Assembly (NCBI GenBank): GCA_028707125.1
Contig: JAQTUX010000001.1
Coordinates: forward strand, 394,375 to 458,374
Source: Candidatus Omnitrophota bacterium
GTDB lineage: Bacteria > Omnitrophota > Gorgyraeia > Gygaellales > JAQTUX01
Direction: 5' to 3'
Length of the DNA: 64,000 nt
In this document: in pieces, positions 1,851-26,354 of the stretch
Position numbering within the stretch: the first letter of the stretch is position 1
Layout of the letters: every line of letters begins with the position of its first letter
Notes under the pieces: model-generated
Seen by the model: only the letters and a program-made list of their open reading frames with translations
Database searches by the model: none
What the model was told of the DNA's origin: nothing
Made by a program: the position numbers and the translations under genes

Positions 1851-2437
1851 GCATACAGGAAAGGGTCAAGAAGATCGGCAGGAACCTTGTGAAATTAAAT
1901 CAGACGGGGCAGCCGCAGGTGCCCGCCGGCAGGGTATTGATCGTTGATAACGGCTATGCCTCATACAGGCATCTTGAGCTGGCGATAGAGCGCACATTGC
2001 AATACGCGGACAGAGGCAGCGTATCCATAATAACGTTTGAACACAGGAAGGGTTTTATATCCGGCAGGTTCGGCCAGATAGATATCATTACCCCTGCTGT
2101 GCCCAGTGCAGGGCGTTACGAGATAGCGTCTCTTATGCTGCGGTACAGGCGTATGGGTTTCAGGCAGATAATCATACTTTCGCTGGACGTAACGCCCATA
2201 CTCGCGTCTTTGCTGTTTACAAAAAGCAGCCTGTTCCTTTATAACCGCTGGGAGCAATGGTGGGAACTGAAGCGGCTGGGCGTAAATGACGGTATCGCGT
2301 TTATGGCGAGGTCGGTTATCAACCTGTTTATATTCGCGTATCTTATTCTAGTGTTCTTGCTCATCCGCGCGAAGATGGCATTTAATATAATACGTTTCAA
2401 AGGCAAGGGCGGGATAGATGACGGCGTATTCGCGTAA
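1847..2437 (+). CDS. Hypothetical protein, soluble N-terminal half plus C-terminal hydrophobic segments
   Basis: ATGA overlap with upstream stop; no recognisable motif; C-terminal 'INLFIFAYLILVFLLI' TM-like. Confidence 0.35.
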   Translation: MSIQERVKKIGRNLVKLNQTGQPQVPAGRVLIVDNGYASYRHLELAIERTLQYADRGSVSIITFEHRKGFISGRFGQIDIITPAVPSAGRYEIASLMLRYRRMGFRQIIILSLDVTPILASLLFTKSSLFLYNRWEQWWELKRLGVNDGIAFMARSVINLFIFAYLILVFLLIRAKMAFNIIRFKGKGGIDDGVFA

Positions 2438-3479
2438 TAACGAGATCAACCTGAAAGAAGAATTAAGGAAGGATATAGTCCTTGAGTCAATGCCGCGCAG
2501 GGTCCAGGTCATTCTGACGACAAAATGCAATTTAAGATGCATTATGTGCGGCAGGTTCAGCTGCGACCCTTCTTTGACCATGCCGCTTGATCGGGTTAAA
2601 AAGATCTACAGCTTGTTCCCTTATTTGCAGATAGTGGACTGGCAGGGCGGAGAGGTGTTTATCCTGGATTATTTCAAGGGGCTTTTTCTTGACGTGTCGG
2701 GGAATTTCCCGCATATTATGCATAATATAACCACCAACGCCCTGCTGATAGACAATGAGTGGGCGGATGTGCTGGCGGGGTCAAACGTGTGCCTGCAGTG
2801 TTCCATAGACTCCGTGACCGAGCCCGTTTATGAGTCTATAAGGGTGGGCGGAAGCTTCAAGGCGTTATCGCGCAATCTTGACCTTATAAATGAAGCGAAG
2901 GCGGCGCGTGCCGGCAACGTAAATCTTGACCTGGTGGCGATAGTAATGAAGCGCAACCTCAAGGAGATGGTGCTGTTCCCTGATTTTTGCAGAAAATATA
3001 ATTTCAGGAGTTTGAGGTTTAGCGCCCTGTGGCCGGATAAGGCGCCCGAAGAGGATATCTTAAGCAGGCCAGAAAGAGACACCTTTCAGTATTTAAACGA
3101 CGCGCTTGTTCAGATCAAGGATAAATGCCGGCAGTATAACATTAATTTTCACTGCACATTTGATTCATTGGTGAGGGCGCATCTGGAGGGCGGTGATAAG
3201 GGCGGCGGTCAGTGCGGCGTTCCTGCGGAAGAAGGCGCGAAGGTGAGGGTCATAGAGTGCCGTATGCCCTGGACCAATCTGTTTATAAACGCCAATGGCG
3301 ATGTCTATCCGGAGTGCAAGTGCCAGCGCCCCGCGGGGAACATAGAGAGGGATTCTCTGGAGGAGATATGGAACAACAGCACTATGCAGATCTACCGCAG
3401 TTTAATAAGATGGGGCGGTGCGGACAAGATCTGCTCTGAGCAATGTAAATTCCGCGGTTCTTTATATGAAAAGTTGTAA
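2418..3479 (+). CDS. Radical SAM enzyme with C-terminal SPASM/twitch auxiliary-cluster domain
   Basis: 'TTKCNLRCIMCGRF' (CX3CX2C), 'WQGGEVF' (GGE SAM motif), C-terminal Cys-rich 'QCG...ECRMPW...ANGDVYPECKC...CSEQCK'. Confidence 0.75.
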   Translation: MTAYSRNNEINLKEELRKDIVLESMPRRVQVILTTKCNLRCIMCGRFSCDPSLTMPLDRVKKIYSLFPYLQIVDWQGGEVFILDYFKGLFLDVSGNFPHIMHNITTNALLIDNEWADVLAGSNVCLQCSIDSVTEPVYESIRVGGSFKALSRNLDLINEAKAARAGNVNLDLVAIVMKRNLKEMVLFPDFCRKYNFRSLRFSALWPDKAPEEDILSRPERDTFQYLNDALVQIKDKCRQYNINFHCTFDSLVRAHLEGGDKGGGQCGVPAEEGAKVRVIECRMPWTNLFINANGDVYPECKCQRPAGNIERDSLEEIWNNSTMQIYRSLIRWGGADKICSEQCKFRGSLYEKL

Positions 3480-3502: not shown

Positions 3503-4891
3503 ATGAAAATATTGCAGATAGTACACAGCTTGCCTCCTTATAATTCCGGCGGTACGGAGGTCTACACTTCAGGCCTCTCGCGGGAGCTGTCCAGGCGCCA
3601 CGACGTCTTTATCGTCCATCGCGTAAACGATCCTTCCAGAGAGGAATATGACGTAAGGTTCCGGCGGCAGGGGAGGGTCAATATATTTGAGATTAACAAC
3701 ACGTTCAGGGAATGCGGTTCTTTCCGGATGCTGTATCAAAACTCTCATATACTGGAAAGGTTTTCCGGAATACTTAAAGATATAAGGCCGGATATCGCCC
3801 ACATTCAGCATCTTTTATTCCTTTCCACGGATATTATAAAGCACCTTAAGTCCGAAGGGGTGCCGGTTGTCTTCACCCTGCACGATTACTGGATGTTCTG
3901 CCAGCAGGGGCAGTTGTTTAACAGGCGTAACGAGGTGTGCCCCGGGCCGTCCGCTGAGCGCTGCTATGAGTGCCTGAAGTACCTGCTTGGCATAAGGGGA
4001 AATGTTATGAGATCATACATTTTCCTCAAGAAATACCTATCCGCTCATTTGCTGGGGTTATCAAAAGAACTGTATTTCGCCTTTGCCCGGGCCGGCTTCT
4101 TGAAAAAAGCAACCGCCATGGATTACATAGAGCGGCGCGCCGGACACATAAGAGAGATGCTGGATATGGCCGATGCCCTTATTTCGCCCTCGCATTTTTT
4201 AAGACAAAGATTTACGGAGTTTGGGGCCAGGCCGGAGAAGATACGGGTTTTGCCCTACGGTTTAGATTACAGCCGTTTTAATAATATAAGTAAAGAGCGG
4301 GGTGGCAGGACAACGAGCGTCGCTTTCATAGGCACATTGCTGCCTGCTAAAGGCGCGGATGTGCTGATCAAGGCCTTCAACAGGCTGGGGGAGGCTGATG
4401 TTGAGCTCAATATTTACGGCCGGCTTTATCCCTATAAGGGATACGAATATTATACCGGTCTGCTCCGGGGCCTGGCGAGGAATAAGAGAGTGAGATTTAT
4501 GGGCGAATTTCATAATGATGACATAGGAAGCATACTCGGCAGGGCGGATGTCCTGGTCGTTCCTTCGGTCTGGCCGGAGAATTCCCCGCTTGTTATACAA
4601 GAAGCGCAGCTGGCAGGGGTACCTGTAATAGCGTCCAGGACAGGAGGCATCCCGGAACTGATAACTCATGGAGAGAACGGGCTGTTGTTTGAGCCGGCAT
4701 GCGACCAGGATTTATACAGGCAGCTGAATTTGTTTATTCATGACCGGCCGCTGGCAAGGCGCCTTAGGGCTGGCGCGGTAATGCCTATGTCTATCGAAGA
4801 GAATGCCTGCAGGGTCTCTGATGTTTATTATGAAGCAGGGGCGGCATGCCAGCCGGCTCTATCGTTGGGGGCTTCGTACAGTGGAATATAA
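3503..4891 (+). CDS. GT4 (GT-B fold) glycosyltransferase
   Basis: 'VVPSVWPENSPLVIQEAQLAGVPVIASRTGGIPELI...GENGLLFEP' typical group-1 glycosyltransferase C-terminal motif. Confidence 0.75.
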   Translation: MKILQIVHSLPPYNSGGTEVYTSGLSRELSRRHDVFIVHRVNDPSREEYDVRFRRQGRVNIFEINNTFRECGSFRMLYQNSHILERFSGILKDIRPDIAHIQHLLFLSTDIIKHLKSEGVPVVFTLHDYWMFCQQGQLFNRRNEVCPGPSAERCYECLKYLLGIRGNVMRSYIFLKKYLSAHLLGLSKELYFAFARAGFLKKATAMDYIERRAGHIREMLDMADALISPSHFLRQRFTEFGARPEKIRVLPYGLDYSRFNNISKERGGRTTSVAFIGTLLPAKGADVLIKAFNRLGEADVELNIYGRLYPYKGYEYYTGLLRGLARNKRVRFMGEFHNDDIGSILGRADVLVVPSVWPENSPLVIQEAQLAGVPVIASRTGGIPELITHGENGLLFEPACDQDLYRQLNLFIHDRPLARRLRAGAVMPMSIEENACRVSDVYYEAGAACQPALSLGASYSGI

Positions 4892-5990
4892 GAGGGATTG
4901 CCGTTATTTCAGGGGCAGTGTCCCCTGCCTGTTCAAAAGATTGTGCAGGGGATGCAGGAAATATCAGAAAATAACCAAGAAGATACTCGTTATAAAGTTG
5001 GCTTCGGCAGGCGATGTATTAAGGACTACGCCGTTGTTACGTGCCTTAAAAAAGATACACCCCGGCGCCTACATGGTCTGGCTTACATCAAAAGAGGCCG
5101 CAGCCGTCCTTGAAGGCAATCCCTTCATTGATGAGGTGCTTTCTTCAGGTTTCGCTTCTTCAGCGAGGCTGATCATGGAGCGTTATGATTGGGTGATATC
5201 GCTGGATAAGGCGGCGGAGGCGGCGGCAATAGCGTCTATGGTCAAGGCGCAGAGGAGGTCGGGATATGGCTTGGGTCCTGACGGGAGGATTTTTCCTTTT
5301 GACAAGGATGCCGAATACGGGTTTATCCTCGGGCTTTCCGATGACCTTAAATTCAGGCGAAATAAGAAGTCATATCAGGAAATAGTATTTGAGACCTGCG
5401 GCCTGCATTTTAGAGGGGAAAAATATGTCCTGCCTTTCAGCGAGAAACAACGCGAGTTTAAACATAGGTTTATGAAGGCAAAGAGGCTGCATAATGATCG
5501 GTTAAAGATAGGGCTTAACACAGGATGCGGTCCGGTTTTTCCCTATAAAAGATGGACGGAGGATGGCTTTGCGGGGCTGGCAGAGCGGTTGATCAGGGCG
5601 GGGGACGCGAAAGTCCTGCTTCTGGGCGGAGCGGAAGAAGAAGAACGCAATAGCAGGATATCGCGAAGATTGGGCCGCGCCGTAATTGACTCCGGGTGCG
5701 GGAATTCGTTAGCGGAATTCGCGGCAATTATTGACTGTTGCGATGTGGTAGTTTCTTCAGATACCCTGGCTATGCATATCGCCATTGGCCTGGGGAAAAA
5801 GACCGTCTGCTTGTTCGGCCCTACCTGTCCCCAGGAAGTAGAATTGTATTCAAACGGTTTAAAGATATCATCATCTTTGGGCTGCGCTCCATGCTATAAG
5901 GATCATTGCGCTCAAGACGGCAAATGTATGAAGGGGATATCCGTGAGCCAGGTGTATTCGGCGGTAAGAAAAATGATGGCTGAAAAATAA
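4803..5990 (+). CDS. GT9 heptosyltransferase-family glycosyltransferase (RfaF/WaaC-like); true start uncertain (possibly TTG near 4938)
   Basis: 'KKILVIKLASAGDVLRTTPLLRAL', 'VVSSDTLAMHIAIGLGKKTVCLFGPT'; 89-nt overlap with upstream gene if ATG 4803 is used; Cys-rich N-terminal extension. Confidence 0.65.
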   Translation: MPAGSLMFIMKQGRHASRLYRWGLRTVEYKRDCRYFRGSVPCLFKRLCRGCRKYQKITKKILVIKLASAGDVLRTTPLLRALKKIHPGAYMVWLTSKEAAAVLEGNPFIDEVLSSGFASSARLIMERYDWVISLDKAAEAAAIASMVKAQRRSGYGLGPDGRIFPFDKDAEYGFILGLSDDLKFRRNKKSYQEIVFETCGLHFRGEKYVLPFSEKQREFKHRFMKAKRLHNDRLKIGLNTGCGPVFPYKRWTEDGFAGLAERLIRAGDAKVLLLGGAEEEERNSRISRRLGRAVIDSGCGNSLAEFAAIIDCCDVVVSSDTLAMHIAIGLGKKTVCLFGPTCPQEVELYSNGLKISSSLGCAPCYKDHCAQDGKCMKGISVSQVYSAVRKMMAEK

Positions 5991-7622: not shown

Positions 7623-8993
7623 ATGCATAATAGATCTGCGCGATCAATTTCTTTAGTATTTCCTATGTACAATGAGAAGGACTACCTTCCTGTCGCCGTA
7701 GAGAAGGCCAGGAAGGTATTAGGCGAACTGACTGATAATTACGAGGTAATAATAGTAGATGACGCCTCAACGGACGGCTCCGGTGAAATGGCGCGGGAAC
7801 TGGCAAGGAATGATGAAAAGATAAGGGTATTAAGGCACAAAAAGAACAGCCGGCTGGGATGCGCGCTTAAGACCGGTTTTAATAACGCCAGGGGCGGCAT
7901 AGTGGTTTATTCCGATATGGATCTGCCGTTTGACCTGGAGAACATTAAGCGGTTCATCCCGCTTTTAGACGAGGCGGATATAGTCGTGGGCCGGCGGATC
8001 GGAAGCAGGGATTCCCTGTTAAGGTCGTTGTATTCTAAGGCGTATAACGGCCTGATAAGGGCGGTGTTCGGCATAAAGGTAAGCGATGTCAACTTCGCCA
8101 TGAAAATATTTAAAAGAGATATCCTGGACCTGTTAGAGTTAAAGTCCGACGGCTCATTTATAGATGCGGAGCTCCTGATCAGGGCCGTGCGTTTGGGCTA
8201 CATAGTGAAGGAAGTAGAGGTCGCCTATCGCGCCAGGCAATACGGCGTATCGCACCTGTGTTCCCTGCCGGTAATATTCAAGATCATCGCGGAAATGGTT
8301 AAATTGCTTCCTGAGTTAAAGGGATTATCAAGAGAGAGGATGCTGTATATCAAGGCGAAGCGCCTGTATAAAGGCCGCGGGTTTAAGGTCTTAATGCACA
8401 ATGCCGTCAGATATCATACCTGTCCTTTTGGCAGGATAATAAGATTGCTTCCCGAAGAGGGTAAATTCCTGGATCTGGGGTGCGGCAACGGATTCTTTAC
8501 AAACATTATCGCCATCGGAGGCAAAAGACGCAATGTGGCCGGCATTGACATTGATAAACGTAAGATAGATCTCGCCCTGGCTTTAAGAGGCAATAGCCGT
8601 AGCGCGGAGTTCCTGCGGGGGGATCTGGCCTCGCCGGATTTCATGCTGCCTGATGAGGCCTATGACTGCATTACATTGGTAGACGCGTTGTATTTATTGC
8701 CCTATCCTCAGCAGGAGGGCCTGCTCAGGGATTGTTTTGATAGCCTGTCTCCGGGAGGTATTCTAATAATAAAAGAGATGGCTAAGAGGCCGATGTTCAA
8801 GTTTTTATTTAATCTTATTCAGGAGACCATAAGCGTAAAGATAGTAAAGAGCACAATGGGCGGTAGATTCTATTTCAGGAAAGAACAATCTTATTTAGGC
8901 CTGCTTAAAGAGATAGGTTTTAATACGCAAAGTATTCATTCAGGCAGCGGATATCTTCATCCCCATCTTATATTCTTATCCAGGAAGCCGTGA
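7623..8993 (+). CDS. Bifunctional: polyprenyl-phosphate sugar synthase-like GT2 (DPM1/ArnC/GtrB-like) fused to class I SAM-dependent methyltransferase
   Basis: 'SLVFPMYNEKDYL...YEVIIVDDASTDGS...VVYSDMDLPFD' (DxD); C-terminal 'FLDLGCGNGFFT' SAM motif I. Confidence 0.7.
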   Translation: MHNRSARSISLVFPMYNEKDYLPVAVEKARKVLGELTDNYEVIIVDDASTDGSGEMARELARNDEKIRVLRHKKNSRLGCALKTGFNNARGGIVVYSDMDLPFDLENIKRFIPLLDEADIVVGRRIGSRDSLLRSLYSKAYNGLIRAVFGIKVSDVNFAMKIFKRDILDLLELKSDGSFIDAELLIRAVRLGYIVKEVEVAYRARQYGVSHLCSLPVIFKIIAEMVKLLPELKGLSRERMLYIKAKRLYKGRGFKVLMHNAVRYHTCPFGRIIRLLPEEGKFLDLGCGNGFFTNIIAIGGKRRNVAGIDIDKRKIDLALALRGNSRSAEFLRGDLASPDFMLPDEAYDCITLVDALYLLPYPQQEGLLRDCFDSLSPGGILIIKEMAKRPMFKFLFNLIQETISVKIVKSTMGGRFYFRKEQSYLGLLKEIGFNTQSIHSGSGYLHPHLIFLSRKP

Positions 8994-11212
8994 AGAAAAC
9001 AATAGTCCTTATTCATCCCCCCGTTGATTTGGGCCAGCGATATGGGTGGCTGGCATTTGCCGGAGGAATAGAGCCGCCGTTAGGGCTGTGTTTCCTGGCT
9101 GCCGCCTTGAGAGAAAGGGGGTTCAGGGCAGCGATCGTTGACGCGCAGTCGCTGGGATTGGATATAGAGGATACGTTGAATCTCGCCTCGCGATACGATC
9201 CGGATTACATCGGGATAACTTCGGTTACCTCCACGATCTCATCCGCTATGAAGCTGGCGGAGGGCGTTAAGAAGATGCTTCCGCGCGCAAAGGTCATATT
9301 GGGAGGATGCCATGTCAGCGCGCTTGCGGAGCAGGCCATGCGGCAATGCGCTTGTTTTGATATTGGGGTCCTGGGGGAGGGGGAGGCGACCTTGAGCGAA
9401 TTACTGGAGGCGTTGGAGGGCGGCAAAGAGTTGTTTTCAGTGGACGGCATCGTTTTCCGGCAAGGCGGTCAGTTGTTTAAAACCGCCCCGAGAAGGCGGA
9501 TCGATGATATAGATACGCTTCCCTTCCCGGCGTTTGACCTGCTTCCCGGGATAAACAGCCATTACCGTGTTCCGCTCCAAAGCAGGGCAGGCGGCCATTC
9601 CTTTTCACTTATAGCTTCGCGCGGCTGCAGGGGAAGATGCGTTTTTTGCGATAGAGGCGTTTTCGGCAATCATCTCCGGCTTAACAGCGCAGAGTATATA
9701 GTGGATATGGTAAGATACATATATAAAAGAGGCGTCCGTTGCCTTATTTTCGAAGACGATGATTTCCTGGTTTCCAGTAGCAGATTGGCAAGGTTCAGAG
9801 ACCTGATCAGAAGGGAGGGCATTGATATATCCTGGTCCTGTTGCACCCGCATGGATACGTTTGACAAAGACACCCTGCGGATCGCTAAAGACGCCGGGTG
9901 CTGGCAGATAATGGCAGGCATAGAAAGCGCGGAACAGGCCATCCTCGATTTCAGCAATAAAGAGTTGAACTCAGAGATCGTGAGGGGCAAAATAAATCTT
10001 GCGAAAGAATCCGGAATTCAGATAAAGGCCTTCTTGATGTTCGGCAACCCCGGAGAGACCGCAGAGAGCTTAGCGAAGACCACGGATTTCGTCCTCGGGC
10101 TGCCTTTAAGCGATATAAGCATTACATTTTTTACTCCGTTTCCCGGGGCCGATATCTGGAAAAACATCGGTGACTACGGCAGTATAATTCAAAGTTTTGA
10201 CCGGTTTAATTGTTTTGAGCCGGTGTTCCTGCCCAAAGGTATCAGTAAGGATGTTTTGATGAAGTATTATGCTTCAGCCCTGTGCAGATTTTATTTGCGC
10301 CCTCAGATCATAAGGAATTACCTGCGCAGGATAATGCCGTCCGGTACGGCAGCCAGGCCCGGCCATAAAGAAAAACGCCTTATTGTCAGCGCGCATGATT
10401 TTGGCCTGAGCAAGGGCGTAAACGACGGCATTATAGATTCGTTTAAAAAAGGCATAGTTACTAACGCGTCTGTTATTTCCTGCGGGAAATATTCCTCCGA
10501 AGCAATAAATTTCCTTAAAGCCAATCCTGATTTGAAGGCGGGAGTGCATTTATGTTTAACCGAGGAAAGGCCGATCCTGCCCGGCAGCGAAATACCCAGT
10601 CTTATTATGAATGACGGGAGGTTCAGGAGATCAAAGTGGCGGTTGCTTGCCGCCTGTATTTCAGGCAGGATCAAGGCCGGCGATATTGAAAGGGAATTTC
10701 AGGCGCAGATAGCCAGGGTTAAGAGGGAAGGGGTAGAGATCAGCTATCTGGACGGGCATTGTTATGCGCATATGTTACCCGGGATAACGGATATCGTAGC
10801 GCGCCTCGCGCAGAAATATAATATCTCCGGAATACGCCTGCCCCATCAGTCCTTTTGGCTTATTGTTAAAGAAGCCGAAAGCAATAATCTTTCCAGAGTC
10901 ATTTTCCAAATATTGTTGAATTTACGATGTATAATATTAAGGAAACGGTGGAGGCGGTTGGGTTTTTATGATACGGATGATTTTATGGGTTTTGTCAGCA
11001 GCGGTCATTTAACGGAGAATAGACTGTTGAAATTGTTGAGGTCGTTAAAAGGCGGGGTCACGGAGGTGATCTCGCACCCTGCGGACGCCGATGATGAGAT
11101 GCAGAAGGGATATCGGGGATGGAGATATGACTGGGAAGCGAACAAGCAGGCGCTGGTATCCAGCCGCGTAAAGGACGCGATCTCAAAAGGGGGGATAGGG
11201 CTTGGAGCTTGA
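8990..11212 (+). CDS. Trifunctional fusion: B12-binding domain + radical SAM domain + YdjC/ChbG-family carbohydrate deacetylase domain (HpnJ+HpnK-like)
   Basis: GTG start overlapping upstream TGA (GTGA); N-terminal B12-binding Rossmann-like region; 'IASRGCRGRCVFCDRG'; C-terminal 'LIVSAHDFGLSKGVNDGIIDSF...HLCLTEE' YdjC-like. Confidence 0.7.
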   Translation: MKKTIVLIHPPVDLGQRYGWLAFAGGIEPPLGLCFLAAALRERGFRAAIVDAQSLGLDIEDTLNLASRYDPDYIGITSVTSTISSAMKLAEGVKKMLPRAKVILGGCHVSALAEQAMRQCACFDIGVLGEGEATLSELLEALEGGKELFSVDGIVFRQGGQLFKTAPRRRIDDIDTLPFPAFDLLPGINSHYRVPLQSRAGGHSFSLIASRGCRGRCVFCDRGVFGNHLRLNSAEYIVDMVRYIYKRGVRCLIFEDDDFLVSSSRLARFRDLIRREGIDISWSCCTRMDTFDKDTLRIAKDAGCWQIMAGIESAEQAILDFSNKELNSEIVRGKINLAKESGIQIKAFLMFGNPGETAESLAKTTDFVLGLPLSDISITFFTPFPGADIWKNIGDYGSIIQSFDRFNCFEPVFLPKGISKDVLMKYYASALCRFYLRPQIIRNYLRRIMPSGTAARPGHKEKRLIVSAHDFGLSKGVNDGIIDSFKKGIVTNASVISCGKYSSEAINFLKANPDLKAGVHLCLTEERPILPGSEIPSLIMNDGRFRRSKWRLLAACISGRIKAGDIEREFQAQIARVKREGVEISYLDGHCYAHMLPGITDIVARLAQKYNISGIRLPHQSFWLIVKEAESNNLSRVIFQILLNLRCIILRKRWRRLGFYDTDDFMGFVSSGHLTENRLLKLLRSLKGGVTEVISHPADADDEMQKGYRGWRYDWEANKQALVSSRVKDAISKGGIGLGA

Positions 11213-12839
11213 TAGAAAAGATTATTTATCGCTGTCATTATTCCTTTGTGTCTTTTTTCTGCTTGAGGCGTATCAGATACATTTGCCGGGGCTATACGCG
11301 GATGAAGCGTTCCCTGCCACCGGCGCTGTTCAGGTGTTGAAACACGTCGGGCCTTTTCTGATCTCAAAAGAGTTGTTCGGCATGTCCTTGCCCATAGCGT
11401 TTGTCCCATATATGACCTGCCTGGAGAGCTATATACTTATGCCATTCTTCTATCTTTTTGGGATCAATGTCTTTGTCTTAAGGTCTGTCCCCATACTACT
11501 GGGAGGGCTCGTGCTTGTTTTTACTTATATATTTATCAGGCGGATTTTTAACAGGACGGCAGCCGTTATCGCTGTCTTGCTCCTGATGGTCAATCCGGAA
11601 TTCCTCATAGGCACTAAACTCGGTAATGACAGCGGCTCCATGCTGCAGTTTATGAATATGGCGGCCATCCTGTGTTTTTATAATTGGTACCGTTTGAAAA
11701 AAGACAGGCATTTTTTTGCCGCGGTGTTTTTCTGGGGGGCGGGTCTTAGCATAAGGCCATGGTTCTCCTGGCCTATAAACAGTATTATTATTATTTCAAT
11801 TGTGTTCTACAGGTATATAGGCAAGGCGGTAATCGCAAAACTCAGGAGCGCTAAATTTATCGCTGGATCATTATTCGGGTTTGCTTCCGGGGCATTTTTA
11901 ATGCTTTTTTATAATTTTTCTTCCGGTTTCCCCATTATCGGATACATGACTAAGTATATATATGCTACGCGCTGCGGGGTCAACAACCTCGCGTATCTGA
12001 ACAATCTTATGTCAAGGGTCGCCGTATTTAAGAATTATCTTCGCGGGACATTCTCACTGGGAAATATGGGCGGATGGAATCACAGGACGCCCGTTGAGCA
12101 TATATCGGCGGATAATTTATACCCCGCGCTTTTTCTTATATCCGCCGCCTGGCTGTTGTTGTCGTCAGCGGCAAATAAAGGACGCTTCAGCAGGAAGGGT
12201 AAGCTGTTTGTGCTGCTTTTCCCTTTATTTATCCTGCTTCAGAGCCCGTTTACCCTTTCCAGCCTGGGCGGGCCGCATCTTTTTATAATCTACCCTTTCA
12301 TACAGGTCATCATTGCCGTGGCGTTTATAGAGATGCTGCTGATAATGAAAAATAAGGTTAAAATAGCGGCGTGTTTCGCGGTTTGCGTTTTCCTGGTCCC
12401 GGTATTCTCAGAAATAAAGACCGCCTACAGGAACAATTACGCCTATATCGCCGGCACGGGCGGCACAGGAAATTATTCCGATGCCATTTACGATCTGAAC
12501 AGATGGCTGCTGGAAGAAGGCGCCTTAGATCCGGTAGTGCTTGATTGGGGTATTTATCACGATCTTATATTTCTTTCCGGCGGCAGGATCTCCCCGGTTA
12601 CCTTTAATTTTGTTGAGAGCGGCGACAGTAAGGATGTAATGATGGAGCGGCTAAGCAATATTATCGGCGGCAAACAGGATAAGGTATACATATTCCACAG
12701 CCCCAAGTTTACCAATAGATATGTTTATGATGATTTCAATGGTCTGGTAAGGCACAGGGGGAAGAGAGCGATAATGCTTAAAGAATTTTCTCAACGGGAC
12801 GGGGAGAAGGTATTCATAGTATATGCCGCCGGGCGTTAG
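11202..12839 (+). CDS. GT-C fold integral-membrane glycosyltransferase (ArnT/PMT-like)
   Basis: ~12 TM; first-loop 'LPGLYADEAFPATGA' DE motif; TTG start overlapping upstream gene. Confidence 0.6.
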   Translation: MELDRKDYLSLSLFLCVFFLLEAYQIHLPGLYADEAFPATGAVQVLKHVGPFLISKELFGMSLPIAFVPYMTCLESYILMPFFYLFGINVFVLRSVPILLGGLVLVFTYIFIRRIFNRTAAVIAVLLLMVNPEFLIGTKLGNDSGSMLQFMNMAAILCFYNWYRLKKDRHFFAAVFFWGAGLSIRPWFSWPINSIIIISIVFYRYIGKAVIAKLRSAKFIAGSLFGFASGAFLMLFYNFSSGFPIIGYMTKYIYATRCGVNNLAYLNNLMSRVAVFKNYLRGTFSLGNMGGWNHRTPVEHISADNLYPALFLISAAWLLLSSAANKGRFSRKGKLFVLLFPLFILLQSPFTLSSLGGPHLFIIYPFIQVIIAVAFIEMLLIMKNKVKIAACFAVCVFLVPVFSEIKTAYRNNYAYIAGTGGTGNYSDAIYDLNRWLLEEGALDPVVLDWGIYHDLIFLSGGRISPVTFNFVESGDSKDVMMERLSNIIGGKQDKVYIFHSPKFTNRYVYDDFNGLVRHRGKRAIMLKEFSQRDGEKVFIVYAAGR

Positions 12840-12868: not shown

Positions 12869-13882
12869 ATGAAGAGACTGACGGTTAGGCTGGCGCTGGT
12901 CCTGTTCGGGATAGCAGCCGGCATATTTATCTGCGAGTCATTCCTGCGCGTCAATCCGGCATATAGATCCAAATATGGCCTGTTTAGTTTTAAGACCTCC
13001 GAGAAATTGTCGGATATATATAGAGACATAAAATACAGGCCTTCCCCAATATACGGCTATGAATTTATTCCCAACAGCGCTGTCAACGTCAACTCTTATG
13101 GATTATGCGGCCCCGAATATATCCTTAAAAAAGGCAGGGACGTATTCCGGATCCTGTTAATAGGCGATTCCATCGCGGCTCAAGACGGCACAGCCAGATT
13201 CTTGGAGAGCCGTCTTAACACACGGCCCATTCATCCCGGATATAAATATCAATTATGGAATACAGGAGTGCCTTCCTATGATCTGCGCAGGTACGCCCTC
13301 GTTTTGAAGCATAAGGGTTTGGCCTATAAGCCGGATATGGTAATGGTATTTTTCTGCTACGGAGACCTTGATATAGACAGTTCGTTTTACTGCAGGGGCA
13401 AAGAGGGCGCTGTGTATAGATACAATATCTCTCTGCCGGAGCTGACCAAGCAGCGCATACCGAATTATCTCTTATTGAAACATTCTTATCTCTATAGATT
13501 TCTAATTTTTCAGGCAGAGTCATATCTGTCCGGCAAGAAATCCTCCATCGGCAATTCCGGCAGAGAGGATGCAGCTCTGACATACCTGTCTGCCATAAAA
13601 GCCCTCTGCGTTAAGAACGACCTGTATTTATTGGGGGTGGTGTTCCCGTCTCTTAAGCCCGCGGCGGAATATTCGGCGTTAGAGAGGGAGCATTTTGTCA
13701 TCTTGCGCGACACAATGGATGTTCTGGGTATCGATTATATAGATTTATGCGGGCTTATACCCGAAGAAAAGAGGGCGGCGATCAGGGAGAGAAGGGATGA
13801 TGTCTTCCATCCCTCTTCCGAAGGGCAGGGCCTTATCGCCGATATTATCTATGAATATATCAAGGTCCATTTCAAAGGATAG
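12869..13882 (+). CDS. Membrane-anchored SGNH/GDSL hydrolase or acyltransferase
   Basis: 'FRILLIGDSIAAQDG', 'WNTGVPSYD', 'RRDDVFHPSSEGQG'. Confidence 0.6.
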   Translation: MKRLTVRLALVLFGIAAGIFICESFLRVNPAYRSKYGLFSFKTSEKLSDIYRDIKYRPSPIYGYEFIPNSAVNVNSYGLCGPEYILKKGRDVFRILLIGDSIAAQDGTARFLESRLNTRPIHPGYKYQLWNTGVPSYDLRRYALVLKHKGLAYKPDMVMVFFCYGDLDIDSSFYCRGKEGAVYRYNISLPELTKQRIPNYLLLKHSYLYRFLIFQAESYLSGKKSSIGNSGREDAALTYLSAIKALCVKNDLYLLGVVFPSLKPAAEYSALEREHFVILRDTMDVLGIDYIDLCGLIPEEKRAAIRERRDDVFHPSSEGQGLIADIIYEYIKVHFKG

Positions 13883-15491
13883 GGCGCGGGGTAATTTAAT
13901 AATCCCGATAGTATTAGTAATAGCGTACTTTTTACTGCAATTATCCCTGATCAGCCTGCCGGGGATCTTCTGCGATGAGGCCATAGACGCGAATCTGGCT
14001 ATCAGGACCATAAAGGGGCAGGGTACACCCCTCGGCATTGATCTTTTTGGCCGGCGCCTGCCTCTGATGATGAGCGATAACCACAGCGCCTTGACCGCCT
14101 ACCTCCTTATTCCTTTCCTGCAGGTTTTCGGCGCGCGCGCATATTCCCTAAGATTATTGACCATATTTGTTGGCTCATTGACATTGCTGGCCGTCTATTT
14201 ATTCACTAAGGAATTATTTGACCGCAAGTCCGCGATATTGTCCATGTTTCTATTGGTGATCAATTTTGCGTTTCTTGTTGATACGAAGATGGGGATAGTG
14301 CACGGTTCAATGATGCAGGCGGCAATGATGTTCGCCTTATTATGCCTGTTGAGATGGTACCGGTCGGGAAGGCTACCGTATTTTTTTACGGCGATGTTTT
14401 TATTGGGCATCGGCATCAGTATAAAGCTATGGTTCATCTGGTTCGTTCTTTCCCTGTTTATTTGCGCCCTGATCTTCAGGCATGCGCTGCTGGCCATGAT
14501 CGGGGGCGATAAAAGGCGTTATATCAGCATGTTGTTTGGGCCGTTATTCTTCGGCTGCGGAGCGCTCTTAATATTACTGTATAACATCGGCACCGGTTGC
14601 TCCACGTTAAGGTATATTTTCAATAACGCTCATTTCACCATAGATGGCGCAGATAATTTTGCCTATTTTGGCAATCTCGCCTTGCGATCCACGCATTTAC
14701 TTGATTACATAAAGGGGGTCACGCCATGGGGTTCTTCATACAGCGGTTATTCACCAATATTCTTCCTGTTGTCGGTCGCCTGGCTTCTGTATCTCCTGGC
14801 AGCCAGGAGATCCGGGCTCTTCCCCAAAAACAGGGTTTTATTCCTTCTTATTTTGACCTTATCTATTTTCTTACAGAGCCCTTTCACGATGACGACCTTG
14901 AAGGCCACGCATATATTTTTGCTGTTTCCTCTCCTGCAGATAATATCAGGCGTAGCGTTTATTGAAGCCGTCTTTTATTTTAGAAAAAACGCGAAGCTCG
15001 TTTTTATCTGCGTTATAATCTTATTTGTGTCCGTATTCGTTGAGGCAAAGAAAACAATTAACGGTTACCTCTATTTTCAACGGACAGGCGGAGAAGGGCT
15101 TTTATCCGATTCCATCAACAGCCTGTCAGGATGGCTTATGGAGAGGAAGGGGGGCAATATAATCATCCTGGACTGGGGGATCAGTGATAGCTTGTATTTT
15201 CTCACAAGGGGAGAGATGGAAAACAGGGTTTATGATCTCGCCGCCTATTGCAGCGGTATTCCAACGGACGCAGGCAATGGAAGGCAGGAGGAGTTTATGG
15301 GGATGCTTAGCAGCCGCCTTAGGGAGAGAGATAGCCTGTATGTGTGCTTTTACCCTAATTATGAACAGGGAAACCGCTGCTGGGATATTTTCAGACAGCT
15401 TATAAAGGAAAGTGATCTGTCGTTATCGGAAGAGAAGAGATTCTATCAGAGGGACGGCAGGGTTGCCTATGCCGTGTTTTCTCTGAAATAG
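13797..15491 (+). CDS. GT-C fold integral-membrane glycosyltransferase (paralog of 11202..12839); start may be ATG 13851
   Basis: 'LPGIFCDEAIDANLA' DE motif; 'WYRSGRLPYFFTAMFLLGIGISIKLWF' aligns with paralog 'WYRLKKDRHFFAAVFFWGAGLSIRPWF'. Confidence 0.6.
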   Translation: MMSSIPLPKGRALSPILSMNISRSISKDRARGNLIIPIVLVIAYFLLQLSLISLPGIFCDEAIDANLAIRTIKGQGTPLGIDLFGRRLPLMMSDNHSALTAYLLIPFLQVFGARAYSLRLLTIFVGSLTLLAVYLFTKELFDRKSAILSMFLLVINFAFLVDTKMGIVHGSMMQAAMMFALLCLLRWYRSGRLPYFFTAMFLLGIGISIKLWFIWFVLSLFICALIFRHALLAMIGGDKRRYISMLFGPLFFGCGALLILLYNIGTGCSTLRYIFNNAHFTIDGADNFAYFGNLALRSTHLLDYIKGVTPWGSSYSGYSPIFFLLSVAWLLYLLAARRSGLFPKNRVLFLLILTLSIFLQSPFTMTTLKATHIFLLFPLLQIISGVAFIEAVFYFRKNAKLVFICVIILFVSVFVEAKKTINGYLYFQRTGGEGLLSDSINSLSGWLMERKGGNIIILDWGISDSLYFLTRGEMENRVYDLAAYCSGIPTDAGNGRQEEFMGMLSSRLRERDSLYVCFYPNYEQGNRCWDIFRQLIKESDLSLSEEKRFYQRDGRVAYAVFSLK

Positions 15492-15498
15492 CCGTCTT

Positions 15499-16719
15499 AT
15501 GAGAGATATGCTGACAGGGTTTGCGAGAAATATCTTCATGGTATCCTGCGCCGTCGTCTTGTTTCTCGCGCGCTTAAAGGACTTATTGATAGGCAGCCAC
15601 TTTGATCTGAGCCCTGATTCTAAAAGCTACATAAGCGCCGCAGGCCATCTTTTGAGCGGAGAGGGATTTTATATAACAAGCTACTTCGGCCAGGAAGTGG
15701 CAAAGAGGGCCTATCTGGACTGGCCTCCATTATATCCTGTTTTGATCGCCGCATTGGGCCTTTTCGGGCTTGACCTCGTTGACGCGGCAAGGCTGATCAG
15801 CACGGCGTCTTTGGTAGCCATGATCGTTCCCCTTTATATGATCTTGAATAAGATAACAAAAAGCGCGGTTTTCTCAGCGATAGGCGGGATCCTTATAATG
15901 GTTTCCTGGCCATTTCTGGAGATCTCCCGGCACGCCTGGACAGAAACGCCTTTTATGTTCTTATCCTATGTGGCCCTGTTTTTTATGATGGATTTCAATA
16001 AGGAAGGCAAGCTATTAAACAGAGAATTTATACTGGGAACGCTTTTTGTCCTTTTGTCCTGCCTGATAAGATGGACGGGCCTGCTGCTGGTTTTTTATGG
16101 GGCCGCGCTTATTTTATTCCAGAGGGGAATTAAGCGGGATCATAAAACATATCGATTGCTCTTTTTCCTGTTCGTCACATGCCTGCCGCTTCTTTTATGG
16201 TGCTTCCGATCGGTGCATATCACGGGAGACCTGGGGTATATATTCGGAGACAAGGAATTTCATGCTTCTCAATATCGGCATTTTGTCAGGAATATATCCC
16301 TTACCTTACGCACTATTTATCTGGACCTGTTCAGGATAGATACGCCGTTTCTTGCTTATTGCGGGTTATTCCTGTCTTTATTTCTCTCTCTGAAAAATAA
16401 TTTTTTATACAGGTGCAAGGTGTTTATCGGGTATGTCATATTATATTTTATATTTATCAGCGGAATTGTCTCGTTAGTGGCCTTAGATGAGATGGGAACA
16501 AGATATACCGTGTCGATGTACCATTCCATAATGATCCTGATCTTTGTCATATTTTATGATAGCGTAAGAAGCTTCTTCGCGTCAAACTTAAGAATGAAAT
16601 CAGCGATATTTATCTTTTGGTTGTTTTTCGCGTGTTTAGTTTATGCTCAATCTCTGGAAATGTCGCGGTTGGTTGTTTCCCTGTTCTTTTCCCAAATGGC
16701 AATACATACAGGGCGCTGA
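15499..16719 (+). CDS. Polytopic membrane protein, possibly short GT-C/PMT_2-like transferase
   Basis: ~10 TM; 'LSPDSKSYISAAGHLLSGEGF' in first loop; no soluble domain. Confidence 0.4.
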   Translation: MRDMLTGFARNIFMVSCAVVLFLARLKDLLIGSHFDLSPDSKSYISAAGHLLSGEGFYITSYFGQEVAKRAYLDWPPLYPVLIAALGLFGLDLVDAARLISTASLVAMIVPLYMILNKITKSAVFSAIGGILIMVSWPFLEISRHAWTETPFMFLSYVALFFMMDFNKEGKLLNREFILGTLFVLLSCLIRWTGLLLVFYGAALILFQRGIKRDHKTYRLLFFLFVTCLPLLLWCFRSVHITGDLGYIFGDKEFHASQYRHFVRNISLTLRTIYLDLFRIDTPFLAYCGLFLSLFLSLKNNFLYRCKVFIGYVILYFIFISGIVSLVALDEMGTRYTVSMYHSIMILIFVIFYDSVRSFFASNLRMKSAIFIFWLFFACLVYAQSLEMSRLVVSLFFSQMAIHTGR

Positions 16720-16736
16720 TAACTAAGAGGTATATT

Positions 16737-18461
16737 TTGAGAGATGTCACCGGCGCGCTTAAGGGTGTTTTCAAGCCGGATTTATTGATAATTATCCTGA
16801 TCGCGCTCATATATTTATCCCTTTCATTGCCGGGATTGAATCTGATCGGATTTGTGGAAGATGAGGTTATACCCGGTATGTTCGGTGTCAACCTTCTTGA
16901 AGGCCGGCGCCTCTGGGACGGAAGCGATGTCGGCATTCGTCTCGGAGGGATGAGCCTGCCGGTTAATCTTATTACCCCGTATTATTTTGCTCTGTCTTCT
17001 TACCTGTTGATCCCTTTCTTTATTTTGTTTGGTATCAGCATATTTTCTTTAAGATTGCTGGGCGTTTCGCTGGCGCTGTTATCATTAACGTCGTTATACT
17101 ATATATGCCGAACGATATTCGGCAGAAAGATCGCCGTGCCGACTGTATTCTTGCTTGCCTGCAGTTCAGCATTTGTATGGTCTACCAAGGTTGAGCTCTC
17201 CATAACAGAGAATCTGTTGAATTTTTTCTTCTGGTCGGCCGTTGCGCTTTTTCTGCTGCGTTTCAGCGGTAAGAGAAGCATTGTTTATTTTTATCTGGGG
17301 TGTTTCTTATTAGGCGCGGGGTTAAGCGTTAAATTTTCTTTCCTGGCAAGAATATTTGGATTCGGCCTGGCATTTATCGTTGTTTTTTATGGTAAAATAG
17401 CTGATTTTATCAGGTCAAACTTGAAGATAAAGCAGGCGATAGTTTCCGCTGTTTGTTTCTGCGCGGGCGCATCCTTGTTTATTTATTACAATGTGGCCAC
17501 CAGCGGCTCTACTTTTAAGCTGGTGAAATATTTGTATACTTGCACTGATGGAGACAATATTAATAATCTGGATTTTAAGGCTAACCTGGAGAGGAGGATC
17601 GGCCAATTCAATACTATCATACAGGAGTATCCGATAGCTGAGCAGGATTGCCTGCCGGCAGATTCTATGGAAGGCCAGGCGGAGCCCTTTATATATAACG
17701 CAAGGAAAATGACGCTGGCGATATTCTGGCCGGCTTTCTTAGCCAATTGCCTGTTTTCTCTCATGCGGGGGAAGGCGGGGCAGAGGAAATACCTGCTTAT
17801 ATATACGGCTTACTTTGTTATATTCTTGACAACTTTGTTCACCCCAGCTTCTTCAAGGACGTTCCATATGTTCGCGCTTGAGCCGATCCCGGCGTTTACC
17901 GTGTCGCTTTTTTGCTGCAATATATGGGACGGTATCACAAAAAGATACGCGGCGGGCAGGCCGCTGCCTGCGCTAATCGCGCTTTCAGCAGTTATTTTAA
18001 TTGCCGGGCCCTTTTTAATGGTTGATTTCAGAAATCACGCCGCATACAACCTGTTATTGCGTAAGACAGGCGGGACATATTTAGGCGCCGTTAGATATGA
18101 AATTGTGGATTATATCCTTGAGAATGGTATTGCCGAGAACGCCTTATTTATTACCGTAGGCGGGAGAAACGGAAAAGAGCCCATGCTTTTCCTGGCTAAG
18201 GGTAAGATTGACTTTGACGATAAGATCAACGGCATGACGGTAGAGGGGCCTGACGAAATATGCGCAGCGGCAGCGGATACAATGTTGAAGACCGGTAAAA
18301 AATTGTTCTTTATTTTTACCGCCTTGCCGCAACGGATTTATTTAGAAAAATATAATATGCTCTATGGATGTTTGAATAAAGCCGGAAGCAGGATGTCTCT
18401 GCGGCGCGTATTCTACAACCGGCTTAATGAACCGCAGTATTACTTATATCAGGCGCGATGA
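16737..18461 (+). CDS. GT-C fold integral-membrane glycosyltransferase (third paralog); ORF track start 16617 overlaps upstream gene by 100 nt, TTG 16737 preceded by 'aagagg' is more likely
   Basis: 'LIGFVEDEVIPGMFG' DE motif; architecture parallel to 11202 and 13797 ORFs. Confidence 0.5.
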   Translation: MRDVTGALKGVFKPDLLIIILIALIYLSLSLPGLNLIGFVEDEVIPGMFGVNLLEGRRLWDGSDVGIRLGGMSLPVNLITPYYFALSSYLLIPFFILFGISIFSLRLLGVSLALLSLTSLYYICRTIFGRKIAVPTVFLLACSSAFVWSTKVELSITENLLNFFFWSAVALFLLRFSGKRSIVYFYLGCFLLGAGLSVKFSFLARIFGFGLAFIVVFYGKIADFIRSNLKIKQAIVSAVCFCAGASLFIYYNVATSGSTFKLVKYLYTCTDGDNINNLDFKANLERRIGQFNTIIQEYPIAEQDCLPADSMEGQAEPFIYNARKMTLAIFWPAFLANCLFSLMRGKAGQRKYLLIYTAYFVIFLTTLFTPASSRTFHMFALEPIPAFTVSLFCCNIWDGITKRYAAGRPLPALIALSAVILIAGPFLMVDFRNHAAYNLLLRKTGGTYLGAVRYEIVDYILENGIAENALFITVGGRNGKEPMLFLAKGKIDFDDKINGMTVEGPDEICAAAADTMLKTGKKLFFIFTALPQRIYLEKYNMLYGCLNKAGSRMSLRRVFYNRLNEPQYYLYQAR

Positions 18462-25541: not shown

Positions 25542-25546
25542 AGACC

Positions 25547-26347
25547 ATGCATTATCTTGATGAGTTAGAAAATACAAGTATTTTTATAATCCGGGAAGCC
25601 CATTACAAATTTGCAAATATCGCCGCCCTGTGGTCTATAGGCAAGGATTCCACTACGCTTCTATGGCTTTGCCGCAAGGCGTTTTTCGGTAAGATCCCTT
25701 TTCCCATAATCCACATAGATACCGGATACAAGTTCCCCCAGATGTATAAATTCAGGGATATTTATGCTGAGAAATGGGGATTGGACCTTATTGTCGGCAG
25801 GAATGAAAAGGCCATAGAAAAGGGTTCTTCGCCCGAGAAAGGCAGGTTAGAGTGCTGTGATCTGCTTAAAACCGAGGCCTTAAAACAGACAATAGCCGGG
25901 CATGATCTCAAGGCCCTGCTCTTAGGCATAAGACGGGATGAGCACGGCATCAGGGCCAAAGAGCGGTATTTTTCTCCGCGCGACGACAAATTCCGATGGG
26001 ATTATCAAAACCAGCCTGCTGAGCTCTGGGAGCATTATAAATCCAGCTTAGAAAAAGAAGGACATTTCAGGGTCCACCCGTTGCTCCATTGGACAGAACT
26101 GAATATCTGGCAATATATAAAGAGAGAAAAGATCCCTGTAACAGGGCTCTATTTTGCCAGGGGCGGCAAGCGTTATCGCAGCATCGGCTGCGTTCCTTGC
26201 TGCCGGCCCGTTGATTCAAAAGCAGATACCATAGATAAGATCATAGATGAACTTAAGACGACCCGGATCGCCGAACGCTCAGGAAGGGCGCAGGATAAAG
26301 AGAATGCCTATGCGATGCAGAAGTTAAGGTCGTTAGGGTATATGTAG
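25547..26347 (+). CDS. cysD: Sulfate adenylyltransferase subunit 2
   Basis: PP-loop 'LWSIGKDSTTLLWL', 'LHWTELNIWQYI', C-terminal 'RYRSIGCVPCC...MQKLRSLGYM'. Confidence 0.8.
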   Translation: MHYLDELENTSIFIIREAHYKFANIAALWSIGKDSTTLLWLCRKAFFGKIPFPIIHIDTGYKFPQMYKFRDIYAEKWGLDLIVGRNEKAIEKGSSPEKGRLECCDLLKTEALKQTIAGHDLKALLLGIRRDEHGIRAKERYFSPRDDKFRWDYQNQPAELWEHYKSSLEKEGHFRVHPLLHWTELNIWQYIKREKIPVTGLYFARGGKRYRSIGCVPCCRPVDSKADTIDKIIDELKTTRIAERSGRAQDKENAYAMQKLRSLGYM

Positions 26348-26354
26348 AAAGCCG

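Follow-up and report, generated by a model that had tools for sequence, protein, structure and literature searches.

Organization of the cassette

The window analysed here is a 64,000-nucleotide stretch of DNA (contig JAQTUX010000001.1) from a Candidatus Omnitrophota bacterium, and the subject of this report is a cassette of three overlapping genes on its forward strand. The first encodes a fusion of a family 2 glycosyltransferase (GT2) with a methyltransferase (7623..8993, +; 456 aa), the second a fusion of a cobalamin (B12)-binding radical S-adenosylmethionine (SAM) enzyme with a YdjC-family deacetylase (8990..11212, +; 740 aa), and the third a GT-C membrane glycosyltransferase (11202..12839, +; 545 aa). 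The original prediction, made from the sequence alone, described a GTGA overlap between the first two genes and three domains in the 740-aa product, and both are confirmed by the coordinates, with the GTGA of stop and start at 8990-8993 and a GTG start codon, and by Pfam domains for B12-binding, radical SAM and YdjC. The GT-C gene lies directly downstream, as was also stated; its start overlaps the stop of the radical SAM-YdjC frame by 11 nt. By hydropathy both fusions are soluble or peripheral, and the GT-C protein is polytopic with about 11 hydrophobic segments.

The GT2-methyltransferase fusion

The N-terminal half of the first fusion matches Pfam Glycos_transf_2 (E=3.5e-28, aa 10-168) and carries the motifs VDDAS (aa 45-49) and DMDLP (aa 98-102), of which D98 and D100 are invariant. 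Its proposed assignment to the DPM1/ArnC/GtrB type is upheld by the Pfam match and by its fold neighbours. The nearest solved sequences in the PDB are ArnC (E=1.8e-19), DPMS (2.3e-13) and GtrB (1.6e-9), and each of the model's top 16 Foldseek neighbours is ArnC, DPMS or GtrB. By sequence, fold and DxD motif, the domain (7638..8306, +; aa 6-228, DxD at aa 98-100) belongs to the polyisoprenyl-phosphate glycosyltransferases of the ArnC/DPMS/GtrB/PpgS type. The top NCBIfam models are ArnC, a haloarchaeal dolichyl-phosphate (Dol-P) hexose transferase and PgfS, and further matches are AglJ and PpgS; every one scores far under its equivalog cutoff. The ArnC equivalog (PRK10714) gives 89.1 bits against a cutoff of 529 and aligns over model positions 5-222 of 316, so that the protein falls outside it.

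The C-terminal half is a class I methyltransferase domain (8442..8927, +; aa 274-435; Pfam Methyltransf_25/11/31/23, E=2e-13) with the GxGxG-type motif LDLGCGNG at aa 283-290. Solved ArnC structures of 322-327 aa align to aa 6-215 only, so the methyltransferase occupies the place of the C-terminal membrane region of ArnC, in agreement with the replacement of transmembrane (TM) helices that had been claimed. No TM hairpin is present; hydropathy detects a single marginal segment at aa 212-230 (8256..8312, +), which is amphipathic (KD19 maximum 1.62, hydrophobic moment up to 1.65). AlphaFold2 models it as a helix at aa 215-233, from which three further helices lead to the methyltransferase domain, and it is likely a membrane-interface helix. 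The whole model is a confident two-module fold with a mean predicted local distance difference test (pLDDT) score of 88.7. The same fusion occurs in 22 clusters at 43-49% identity, and the GT2 half has numerous family members that are short GT2s of about 250-270 aa without TM segments.

A hopanoid parallel had been drawn between this GT2 and HpnI. It finds no backing, since BLASTP gave no match at E<10 against two authentic HpnI proteins and the NCBIfam matches include no HpnI model. For the methyltransferase, phosphoethanolamine N-methyltransferases come nearest among solved sequences (E=7.6e-10), a weak lead, and NodS is not among its Pfam matches.

The cobalamin-dependent radical SAM module

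The AlphaFold2 model of the second, soluble fusion (mean pLDDT 91.3) shows two modules joined by a disordered, flexible linker at aa 450-459 (10337..10366, +; pLDDT about 40), which coincides with the gene boundary of unfused versions at three other loci (L007, L104 and L154). The N-terminal module comprises a cobalamin-binding domain at aa 24-138 (9059..9403, +; Pfam B12-binding, E=2.9e-24, 85.6 bits) and a radical SAM core at aa 208-368 (9611..10093, +; Pfam Radical_SAM, E=5.9e-21, 75.8 bits), both over the Pfam cutoff. The CX3CX2C motif reads CRGRCVFC at aa 213-220 (nt 9626-9649), and C213, C217 and C220 are invariant in both alignments (A1 and A3). The cobalamin motifs are G75, G105-G106-x-H108 and G129-E130-G131-E132; alignment A1 has G75, G105, G106, H108, E130 and E132 invariant and G129 nearly so, and alignment A3 has G105, G106 and E130 invariant and G131 nearly so. 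The cassette profile also aligns with true cobalamin domains. On domain and motif criteria the enzyme is thus a class B (cobalamin-dependent) radical SAM protein with predicted cobalamin binding, in which the Trp that follows the Cys loop in TokK-type enzymes is absent.

The description of this module as HpnJ-like finds no specific support in a comparison with the family. Its score with the HpnJ model TIGR03471 is 167.9 bits against a cutoff of 577.6, barely over its BchE score of 159.6 in NCBIfam. Reference HpnJ and BchE sequences were taken from annotated plasmids, namely hpnI-hpnJ-hpnK operons of Mycetohabitans and Burkholderia and bchE of Skermanella and Thiodictyon. By BLASTP the radical SAM module gave 117-126 bits with HpnJ (24-26% identity), 151-164 bits with BchE and 186-213 bits with unnamed enzymes. 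In a neighbor-joining tree of 87 sequences with 200 bootstraps, the window enzyme falls in a clade of its own, HpnJ groups with an enzyme of Lawsonia at 100%, and the backbone is not resolved; the tree excludes a supported sister relationship with HpnJ and does not place the window clade. Furthermore, the GGxH and GEGE motifs that the cassette family shares with BchE are replaced in authentic HpnJ by VGAKV and REEFD. The closest solved relative is instead AprD4, which matches the radical SAM core and the C-terminal region by sequence (E=2.7e-22), by profile (2.4e-36) and by fold (Foldseek TM 0.76); its N-terminal domain does not align to the cassette family.

Several observations concern relatives of these enzymes. 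The motif loss in the authentic hpnJ genes (L009:5857-7278 and L014:3857-5278) raises the question of whether HpnJ itself binds cobalamin canonically. The enzyme closest to authentic HpnJ in the set (265-273 bits) is encoded on a Lawsonia intracellularis plasmid (L011:6837-8300) in a glycan cluster that also includes GT2s, six class I methyltransferase genes, GalE, a SIS protein and two DUF2304 proteins. Hopanoid genes are absent from its vicinity, so HpnJ-like enzymes may have a role beyond hopanoids as well. The top-scoring relative of the window enzyme from a cultured organism (213 bits) lies on a plasmid of Azoarcus sp. KH32C (L010:7917-12402) and adjoins an isoprenylcysteine-carboxyl-methyltransferase-family protein, a ketoacyl-acyl carrier protein (ACP) synthase, an ACP and a PAP2 phosphatase, which looks like a lipid-modification context. 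A membrane protein with a lysylphosphatidylglycerol-synthase domain (PF03706) adjoins hpnK/hpnI in two Burkholderiaceae (L009:8129-9190 and L014:6551-7564), and a PF03706 domain is also fused to one relative of the window radical SAM enzyme (P0031, 622 aa).

The YdjC deacetylase domain and the adjacent GT-C protein

The C-terminal module of the second fusion (10376..11185, +; aa 463-732; Pfam YdjC, E=1.3e-58) belongs to the YdjC/ChbG/HpnK/NaxD superfamily (PF04794), with 199.4 bits against a cutoff of 29.7, and matches solved YdjC/ChbG deacetylases in fold and sequence. It bears the motif SAHDFG at aa 467-472 of the fusion, and D470, H520, H590 and H696 are invariant in 21 aligned cassette and HpnK sequences (20 past the end of the truncated L020). 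Among NCBIfam models HpnK (TIGR03473) scores best, at 180.3 bits under a cutoff of 232.6, and ChbG follows at 129.5; HpnK aligns over 94-99% of the domain, ChbG over about 54%, in the N-terminal half only. YdjC genes of Proteus and Methylobacterium were tried as Lgm-type comparators and rejected, because a hidden Markov model (HMM) scan identified the former as ChbG-type and the latter as part of an hpnJ/hpnK pair. The third protein of the cassette is a member of the GT-C family PMT_2 (PF13231; E=2.1e-8, 35.0 bits against a cutoff of 26.1), and its family profile has archaeal AglB as its only, marginal match among solved structures (E=0.028).

That the best curated models for the two halves of the second fusion are HpnK and HpnJ, and that some Omnitrophota genomes encode squalene-hopene cyclase (PMC12324291), would be consistent with a genuine hopanoid side-chain pathway, in which a divergent hpnIJK set acts on bacteriohopanetetrol in an Omnitrophota hopanoid producer. 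Neither half, however, reaches its TIGRFAM cutoff, and no HpnI-like glycosyltransferase accompanies them; the 64-kb window contains no squalene-hopene cyclase gene (shc), no hpnH or hpnG and no other hopanoid gene, and in several genomes the cassette lies among GT9, GT4, GT2 and GT-C genes for envelope glycans. The cassette belongs to none of the curated HpnI, HpnJ and HpnK families and is not the bona fide hopanoid hpnIJK cluster that had been named among the findings that would refute the original prediction. A hopanoid link is improbable, and a hopanoid side-chain pathway as such is given only a very small chance.

Conservation of the cassette across loci

Further loci were collected through homolog contigs and through an alignment-based scan for the radical SAM enzyme in metagenome and species-representative genome collections; a scan of the genome collection with a single protein as query had returned no matches. 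About 19 independent loci encode a radical SAM enzyme at least 43% identical to that of the window together with YdjC, methyltransferase and GT2 modules. All are from metagenome-assembled genomes and, where labelled, from Omnitrophota, Elusimicrobiota and Desulfobacteria. YdjC is found near every radical SAM enzyme at or above this identity for which flanking sequence is available.

The modules are arranged differently from locus to locus. At L104 they are fully unfused, in the order GT2, methyltransferase, radical SAM, YdjC and GT-C. At L007 and L154 a GT2-methyltransferase fusion precedes separate radical SAM, YdjC and GT-C genes, and in the window, L102 and L103 it precedes the radical SAM-YdjC fusion and GT-C. 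A separate GT2 is followed at L004 and L018 by radical SAM-YdjC, methyltransferase and GT-C, and at L001 by a triple fusion, radical SAM-YdjC-methyltransferase, and GT-C. L021 and L105 read GT-C, radical SAM, GT2-methyltransferase and YdjC, and L061 reads radical SAM, YdjC-GT2 and methyltransferase, then a pair of ABC-2 transporter genes. Four fusion types therefore exist among the four soluble modules: GT2-methyltransferase, radical SAM-YdjC, radical SAM-YdjC-methyltransferase and YdjC-GT2. They constitute Rosetta-stone evidence that the modules act together and, with the conserved adjacency, make it very likely that these share one substrate. The radical SAM-YdjC fusion itself is rare: of 1.84 billion representative proteins, only about five span both domains. 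At L061 (11765-15245), where no GT-C is in view, the ABC-2 pair is Wzm/Wzt-like and a carbamoyltransferase also follows, which suggests an alternative export or decoration route.

The association was counted in a census of 98 loci, each with 1.5 kb or more of sequence to either side, in which neighbours within 4 kb were scored. Among the 12 loci with YdjC, a methyltransferase was present in all 12, a GT2 in 11 and a GT-C in 7; among the 86 without it, a methyltransferase was present in 11, a related GT2 in 53 (62%) and a GT-C in 9. Fisher's exact test gave p=1.7e-9 for methyltransferase with YdjC and p=4e-4 for GT-C with YdjC, for loci that are not phylogenetically independent. The GT-C and methyltransferase counts are lower bounds, the HMMs being narrow: an upstream PMT_2 gene at L021 was missed by them and found by Pfam.

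Close relatives of the radical SAM enzyme are fused to a class I methyltransferase in five of the ten long proteins examined; other fusions join it to a DegT/DnrJ/EryC1 sugar aminotransferase (P0279), a GT4 (P0240), a GT2 (P0283) and an HD domain (P0316). The fusions with sugar enzymes and the proximity of GT2 genes tie this radical SAM clade to sugar or glycan metabolism.

In the window, the long co-directional cluster with its many glycosyltransferases, SGNH hydrolases and other radical SAM genes could also be taken to mean that a large glycan cluster happens to bring together four unrelated enzymes that do not share a substrate. Such a reading is hard to sustain against four pairwise or triple fusions and conserved adjacency at about 19 loci in several phyla, and we regard it as highly improbable. 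The claim that the genes form one unit that tailors a lipid-linked sugar and feeds the GT-C is supported by the conserved synteny and the four fusion arrangements at these loci.

Proposed pathway

It is proposed, with modest confidence, that the cassette assembles a polyprenyl-phosphate-linked amino sugar on the cytoplasmic face of the membrane, and that this sugar is then transferred in the periplasm to an envelope glycoconjugate. The evidence establishes which domains are present, that their active-site motifs are intact, and that the modules recur together and in fusions; the order of the steps, the substrates and the product are all inferred from homology, topology and gene association. 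The acceptor would most likely be the lipopolysaccharide (LPS) core or lipid A because of recurrent GT9 neighbours. A GT9 of the heptosyltransferase family (4803..5990, +; Pfam Glyco_transf_9, E=8.6e-26) lies upstream in the window, a context pointing to the LPS core, and GT9 genes flank the cassette at three loci (L098, L099 and the window itself). The window and L098 are syntenic, and their SGNH protein, a 196-aa protein, GT4, GT9, the fusion and GT-C are 51-63% identical between the two, GT9 at 63%.

In the first step, the GT2 domain, lacking TM segments, would transfer an N-acetylhexosamine (HexNAc) to undecaprenyl phosphate (Und-P), as its homologs suggest; UDP-GlcNAc would be the simplest donor, the cassette itself having no nucleotide-sugar genes. 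In the second, the YdjC domain, with its intact catalytic set and the precedent of NaxD, LgmC and HpnK, would remove the N-acetyl group to give an Und-P-linked hexosamine (Und-P-HexN). In the third, the cobalamin radical SAM module tethered to the deacetylase would functionalise an unactivated ring carbon while leaving the anomeric phosphate intact. In the fourth, the class I methyltransferase would methylate the sugar a second time, plausibly at the amine that the deacetylase has freed, and N-methylation of that amine would fit the tight co-occurrence of methyltransferase and YdjC. In the fifth, after flipping, the adjacent GT-C would transfer the tailored sugar to the acceptor.

C-methylation is the leading guess for the radical step, AprD4-like dehydration or oxidation the second, and ring contraction of the HpnJ/Cds type the least likely. 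C-methylation is favoured because it is the commonest class B radical SAM chemistry, needs no extra partner and preserves the glycosyl donor. Since sequence cannot yet separate class B methylases from non-methylases (PMC9204698), this ranking is soft, and the specific combination of C- and N-methylation is a tentative and rather doubtful part of the proposal.

A ring contraction would follow the HpnK/HpnJ route, in which the deacetylated lipid-linked glucosamine becomes an aminocyclitol and the end product is an acid-stable cyclitol lipid that GT-C does not use, analogous to bacteriohopanetetrol cyclitol ether or calditol. The pairing of YdjC with a B12-type radical SAM enzyme does match hpnK and hpnJ, which are adjacent and overlapping in Mycetohabitans; the two fusion halves find HpnK and HpnJ as their top NCBIfam models, the wide coverage of the YdjC domain by HpnK relative to ChbG points the same way, and the visible flanks of some cassettes contain no GT-C. 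Against this, the radical SAM module is far under the HpnJ cutoff, scores lower with HpnJ than with BchE, is not its sister and differs in its cobalamin motifs, and the GT2 is ArnC/DPMS-like with no similarity to HpnI. The mechanism proposed for HpnJ/Cds-type contraction couples C1 to C5 (PMC13459092), so that the anomeric carbon would become a ring carbon of the carbocycle; the resulting polyprenyl-phospho-cyclitol, having no anomeric centre, would leave no glycosyl donor for the GT-C, whose gene in most cassettes overlaps that of the fusion. The original prediction of a radical rearrangement in the HpnJ sense before GT-C transfer is therefore chemically awkward, and ring contraction is given a low probability.

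A nearer competitor keeps the same pathway and makes the radical SAM enzyme a non-methylase of the AprD4 or BtrN sort. Its action on the lipid-linked glucosamine would be a dehydration or oxidation that gives a keto or deoxy sugar, on which either the class I methyltransferase or an unlinked reductase or aminotransferase would then act. No solved protein is closer to the module than AprD4 in sequence, profile or fold, the best NCBIfam matches HpnJ and BchE are likewise non-methylases (PMC9204698), and the DegT/DnrJ/EryC1 aminotransferase fused to the close clade member P0279 is of a class that acts on keto-sugars. Yet the YdjC-type cassette has neither a conserved reductase nor a conserved aminotransferase, and the failure of the AprD4 N-terminal domain to align, together with the canonical cobalamin motifs kept here, suggests a reaction that requires cobalamin. 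Dehydration or oxidation is considered unlikely, although by no means negligible.

Several findings weigh against the proposed pathway of methylation and GT-C transfer. None of the characterised families nearest to the radical SAM module, namely AprD4 in the PDB and HpnJ and BchE in NCBIfam, is a methylase, which weakens the guess of C-methylation. The fold neighbours of the methyltransferase mix N-, O- and C-methyltransferases and so give no guide to its specificity. The correlation of methyltransferase with YdjC comes from related loci and a narrow methyltransferase HMM. The GT-C at 11202-12839 has no sequence match in the PDB and is not ArnT-like, GT-C proteins adjacent to cassettes are mutually only 15-39% identical and resemble neither ArnT nor any solved GT-C in sequence, and a GT-C is adjacent in only 12 of the roughly 19 cassettes. 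No flippase was identified for the cassette.

Genomic context

The first 22 kb of the window form a single co-directional envelope-glycan cluster, with genes for SGNH/GDSL hydrolases, a radical SAM/SPASM protein, GT4, GT9, a tetratricopeptide repeat (TPR) protein, GT2s, the cassette, three GT-C proteins and a membrane protein resembling LA_3751/3752. On its 3' side follow a DUF2142 protein, a phosphodiesterase, CysD/CysN/TauE and then genes for nitrogen metabolism and housekeeping. The operon of the cassette continues with two further GT-C genes (13797-15491, +, Pfam PMT_2 E=5e-12; 16617-18461, +, Pfam PMT_2 E=5.5e-10), between which lies the LA_3751/3752-like polytopic protein (15499-16719, +; NCBIfam NF047440, E=2.7e-9). 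The proteins of 13797..18461 have 11-12 hydrophobic segments apiece and are putative periplasmic-face glycosylation proteins. The LA_3751/3752-like putative glycosyltransferase and the DUF2142 protein (22032-23444) have about 12 hydrophobic segments each and, with the three PMT_2 proteins, make five candidate lipid-carrier-dependent transferases inside 12 kb.

Five SGNH/GDSL-hydrolase paralogs are encoded in the window (816-1850, 12869-13882, 19424-20470, 20486-22048 and 29516-31021); two of the five have long TPR arrays, and the one that was checked, at 12869, has an N-terminal hydrophobic segment. They suggest that O-acyl groups of the same glycan are edited in the periplasm. The stretch 23478-28425, which follows the glycan genes directly, encodes a phosphodiesterase of the alkaline phosphatase superfamily, CysD, CysN and a TauE/SafE exporter, and the envelope glycan could thus be sulfated. 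The 196-aa protein mentioned above (1847-2437) has no Pfam match and two or three C-terminal hydrophobic segments; it is kept at 52% identity and in an equivalent position in L098 (5353-5940) and is a candidate small membrane partner or flippase. The radical SAM/SPASM protein of the glycan cluster (2418-3479) is of the twitch type, and extra radical SAM genes also surround the related cassettes L007, L061, L099, L103 and L106, those of L007 including giant radical SAM/SPASM proteins of 657-977 aa. Farther downstream, two glutamine synthetase genes (37901-39412, +; 47353-48885, -) flank genes for glutamate synthase and CTP synthase, and the product of the second has an N-terminal HTH_17 DNA-binding domain.

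Significance

Envelope amino-sugar modifications such as 4-amino-4-deoxy-L-arabinose (Ara4N), glucosamine (GlcN) and galactosamine (GalN) on lipid A alter surface charge, resistance to antimicrobial peptides and innate immune recognition. To our knowledge, the sugar at the carrier stage of these pathways is only deacylated. The cassette suggests that some uncultivated phyla add radical cobalamin-dependent chemistry and methylation while the sugar is still on its lipid carrier, a stage for which the literature searched reports no radical SAM enzyme. It may then be the first case of a cobalamin radical SAM enzyme editing a sugar on a polyprenyl-phosphate carrier. The LPS of Omnitrophota and Elusimicrobiota would as a result bear an amino sugar that is both C-modified and N-methylated, and pairs of GT2 and B12-radical SAM genes would form a widespread, so far unrecognised layer of "carrier-level radical tailoring" in the synthesis of bacterial envelope glycans; the odds of this reading as a whole are put at somewhat below even. 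Such related gene pairs are present at about 60% of the loci (roughly 100, with labels from more than ten phyla). If the reading is true, class B radical SAM enzymes would gain a new substrate class, a new modified amino sugar would be predicted on the surface of Omnitrophota and Elusimicrobiota, and the many environmental B12-radical SAM genes that adjoin short GT2 genes without TM segments would acquire a functional handle. The fusions make the cassette compact enough to express in a heterologous host, and so the pathway is testable.

Comparison with known systems

Neither a radical SAM-YdjC fusion nor the cassette is described in the literature covered by full-text searches, as the original prediction of an undescribed pathway had anticipated, and the searches yielded no account of a cobalamin radical SAM enzyme that acts on undecaprenyl-phosphate sugars. 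The known systems can nevertheless be ranged beside it. LgmA is ArnC-like, LgmB ArnT-like and LgmC NaxD-like. In Bordetella, the GlcN modification of lipid A requires lgmA, lgmB and lgmC (PMC4993483). NaxD of Francisella and Acinetobacter, a member of the YdjC superfamily, deacetylates undecaprenyl-P-GalNAc before GalN is transferred to lipid A (PMC11279074). These FlmF2-NaxD-FlmK and LgmA-LgmC-LgmB systems are the closest known, with an ArnC-like GT2 that makes undecaprenyl-P-HexNAc, a YdjC enzyme that deacetylates it and a GT-C that transfers the product (PMC11279074, PMC4993483). The window has the three matching families in adjacent, overlapping genes, a likeness of gene context. The cassette differs in two added modules joined by fusion to the core enzymes, one a class I methyltransferase and the other a cobalamin radical SAM enzyme, in a GT2 without TM helices and in a GT-C without detectable sequence similarity to ArnT or any solved GT-C.

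With HpnI-HpnK-HpnJ the cassette shares a YdjC deacetylase and a B12-domain radical SAM enzyme, and the Hpn pair acts, as is proposed for the cassette, on a lipid-linked, GlcNAc-derived sugar; it departs from that set in a GT2 unrelated to HpnI, a radical SAM enzyme outside the HpnJ clade and a GT-C downstream. The parallel with ArnC-ArnD-ArnT holds in part. Among solved proteins ArnC is nearest to the GT2, and the proposed order of steps, from a lipid-linked N-acyl sugar through deacylation to GT-C transfer, is alike; the deacetylase is nearer to the NaxD/LgmC precedent, which the original prediction missed, than to ArnD, which is not a YdjC enzyme, and the C-terminal membrane region of ArnC is replaced by a methyltransferase.

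Radical and methyl-transfer chemistry on amino sugars has its own precedents. AprD4, the radical SAM 1,2-diol dehydratase of apramycin synthesis, acts on the glucosamine ring of paromamine; the cassette enzyme is 22% identical to it, keeps the canonical cobalamin motifs and has no conserved AprD3-like reductase beside it. In gentamicin synthesis, the class I N-methyltransferase GenN and the cobalamin radical SAM C-methyltransferases GenD1 and GenK modify amino sugars, a precedent for the two enzyme classes acting on one amino sugar, and in the NodC-NodB-NodS series of Nod factor synthesis a GT2 and a deacetylase are followed by N-methylation of the freed amine. The substrates of GenN, GenD1, GenK and the Nod enzymes are soluble pseudo-oligosaccharides or chitooligosaccharides, not polyprenyl-phosphate sugars, and no specific sequence relationship of the cassette to the Gen or Nod enzymes was found. 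In conclusion, the cassette is predicted to work in the manner of the Lgm, Flm-NaxD and Arn systems, yet it is a member of no curated equivalog among ArnC, HpnJ, HpnK and HpnI, and it appears to be a known kind of pathway with two undescribed additions, the cobalamin radical SAM enzyme and the methyltransferase.

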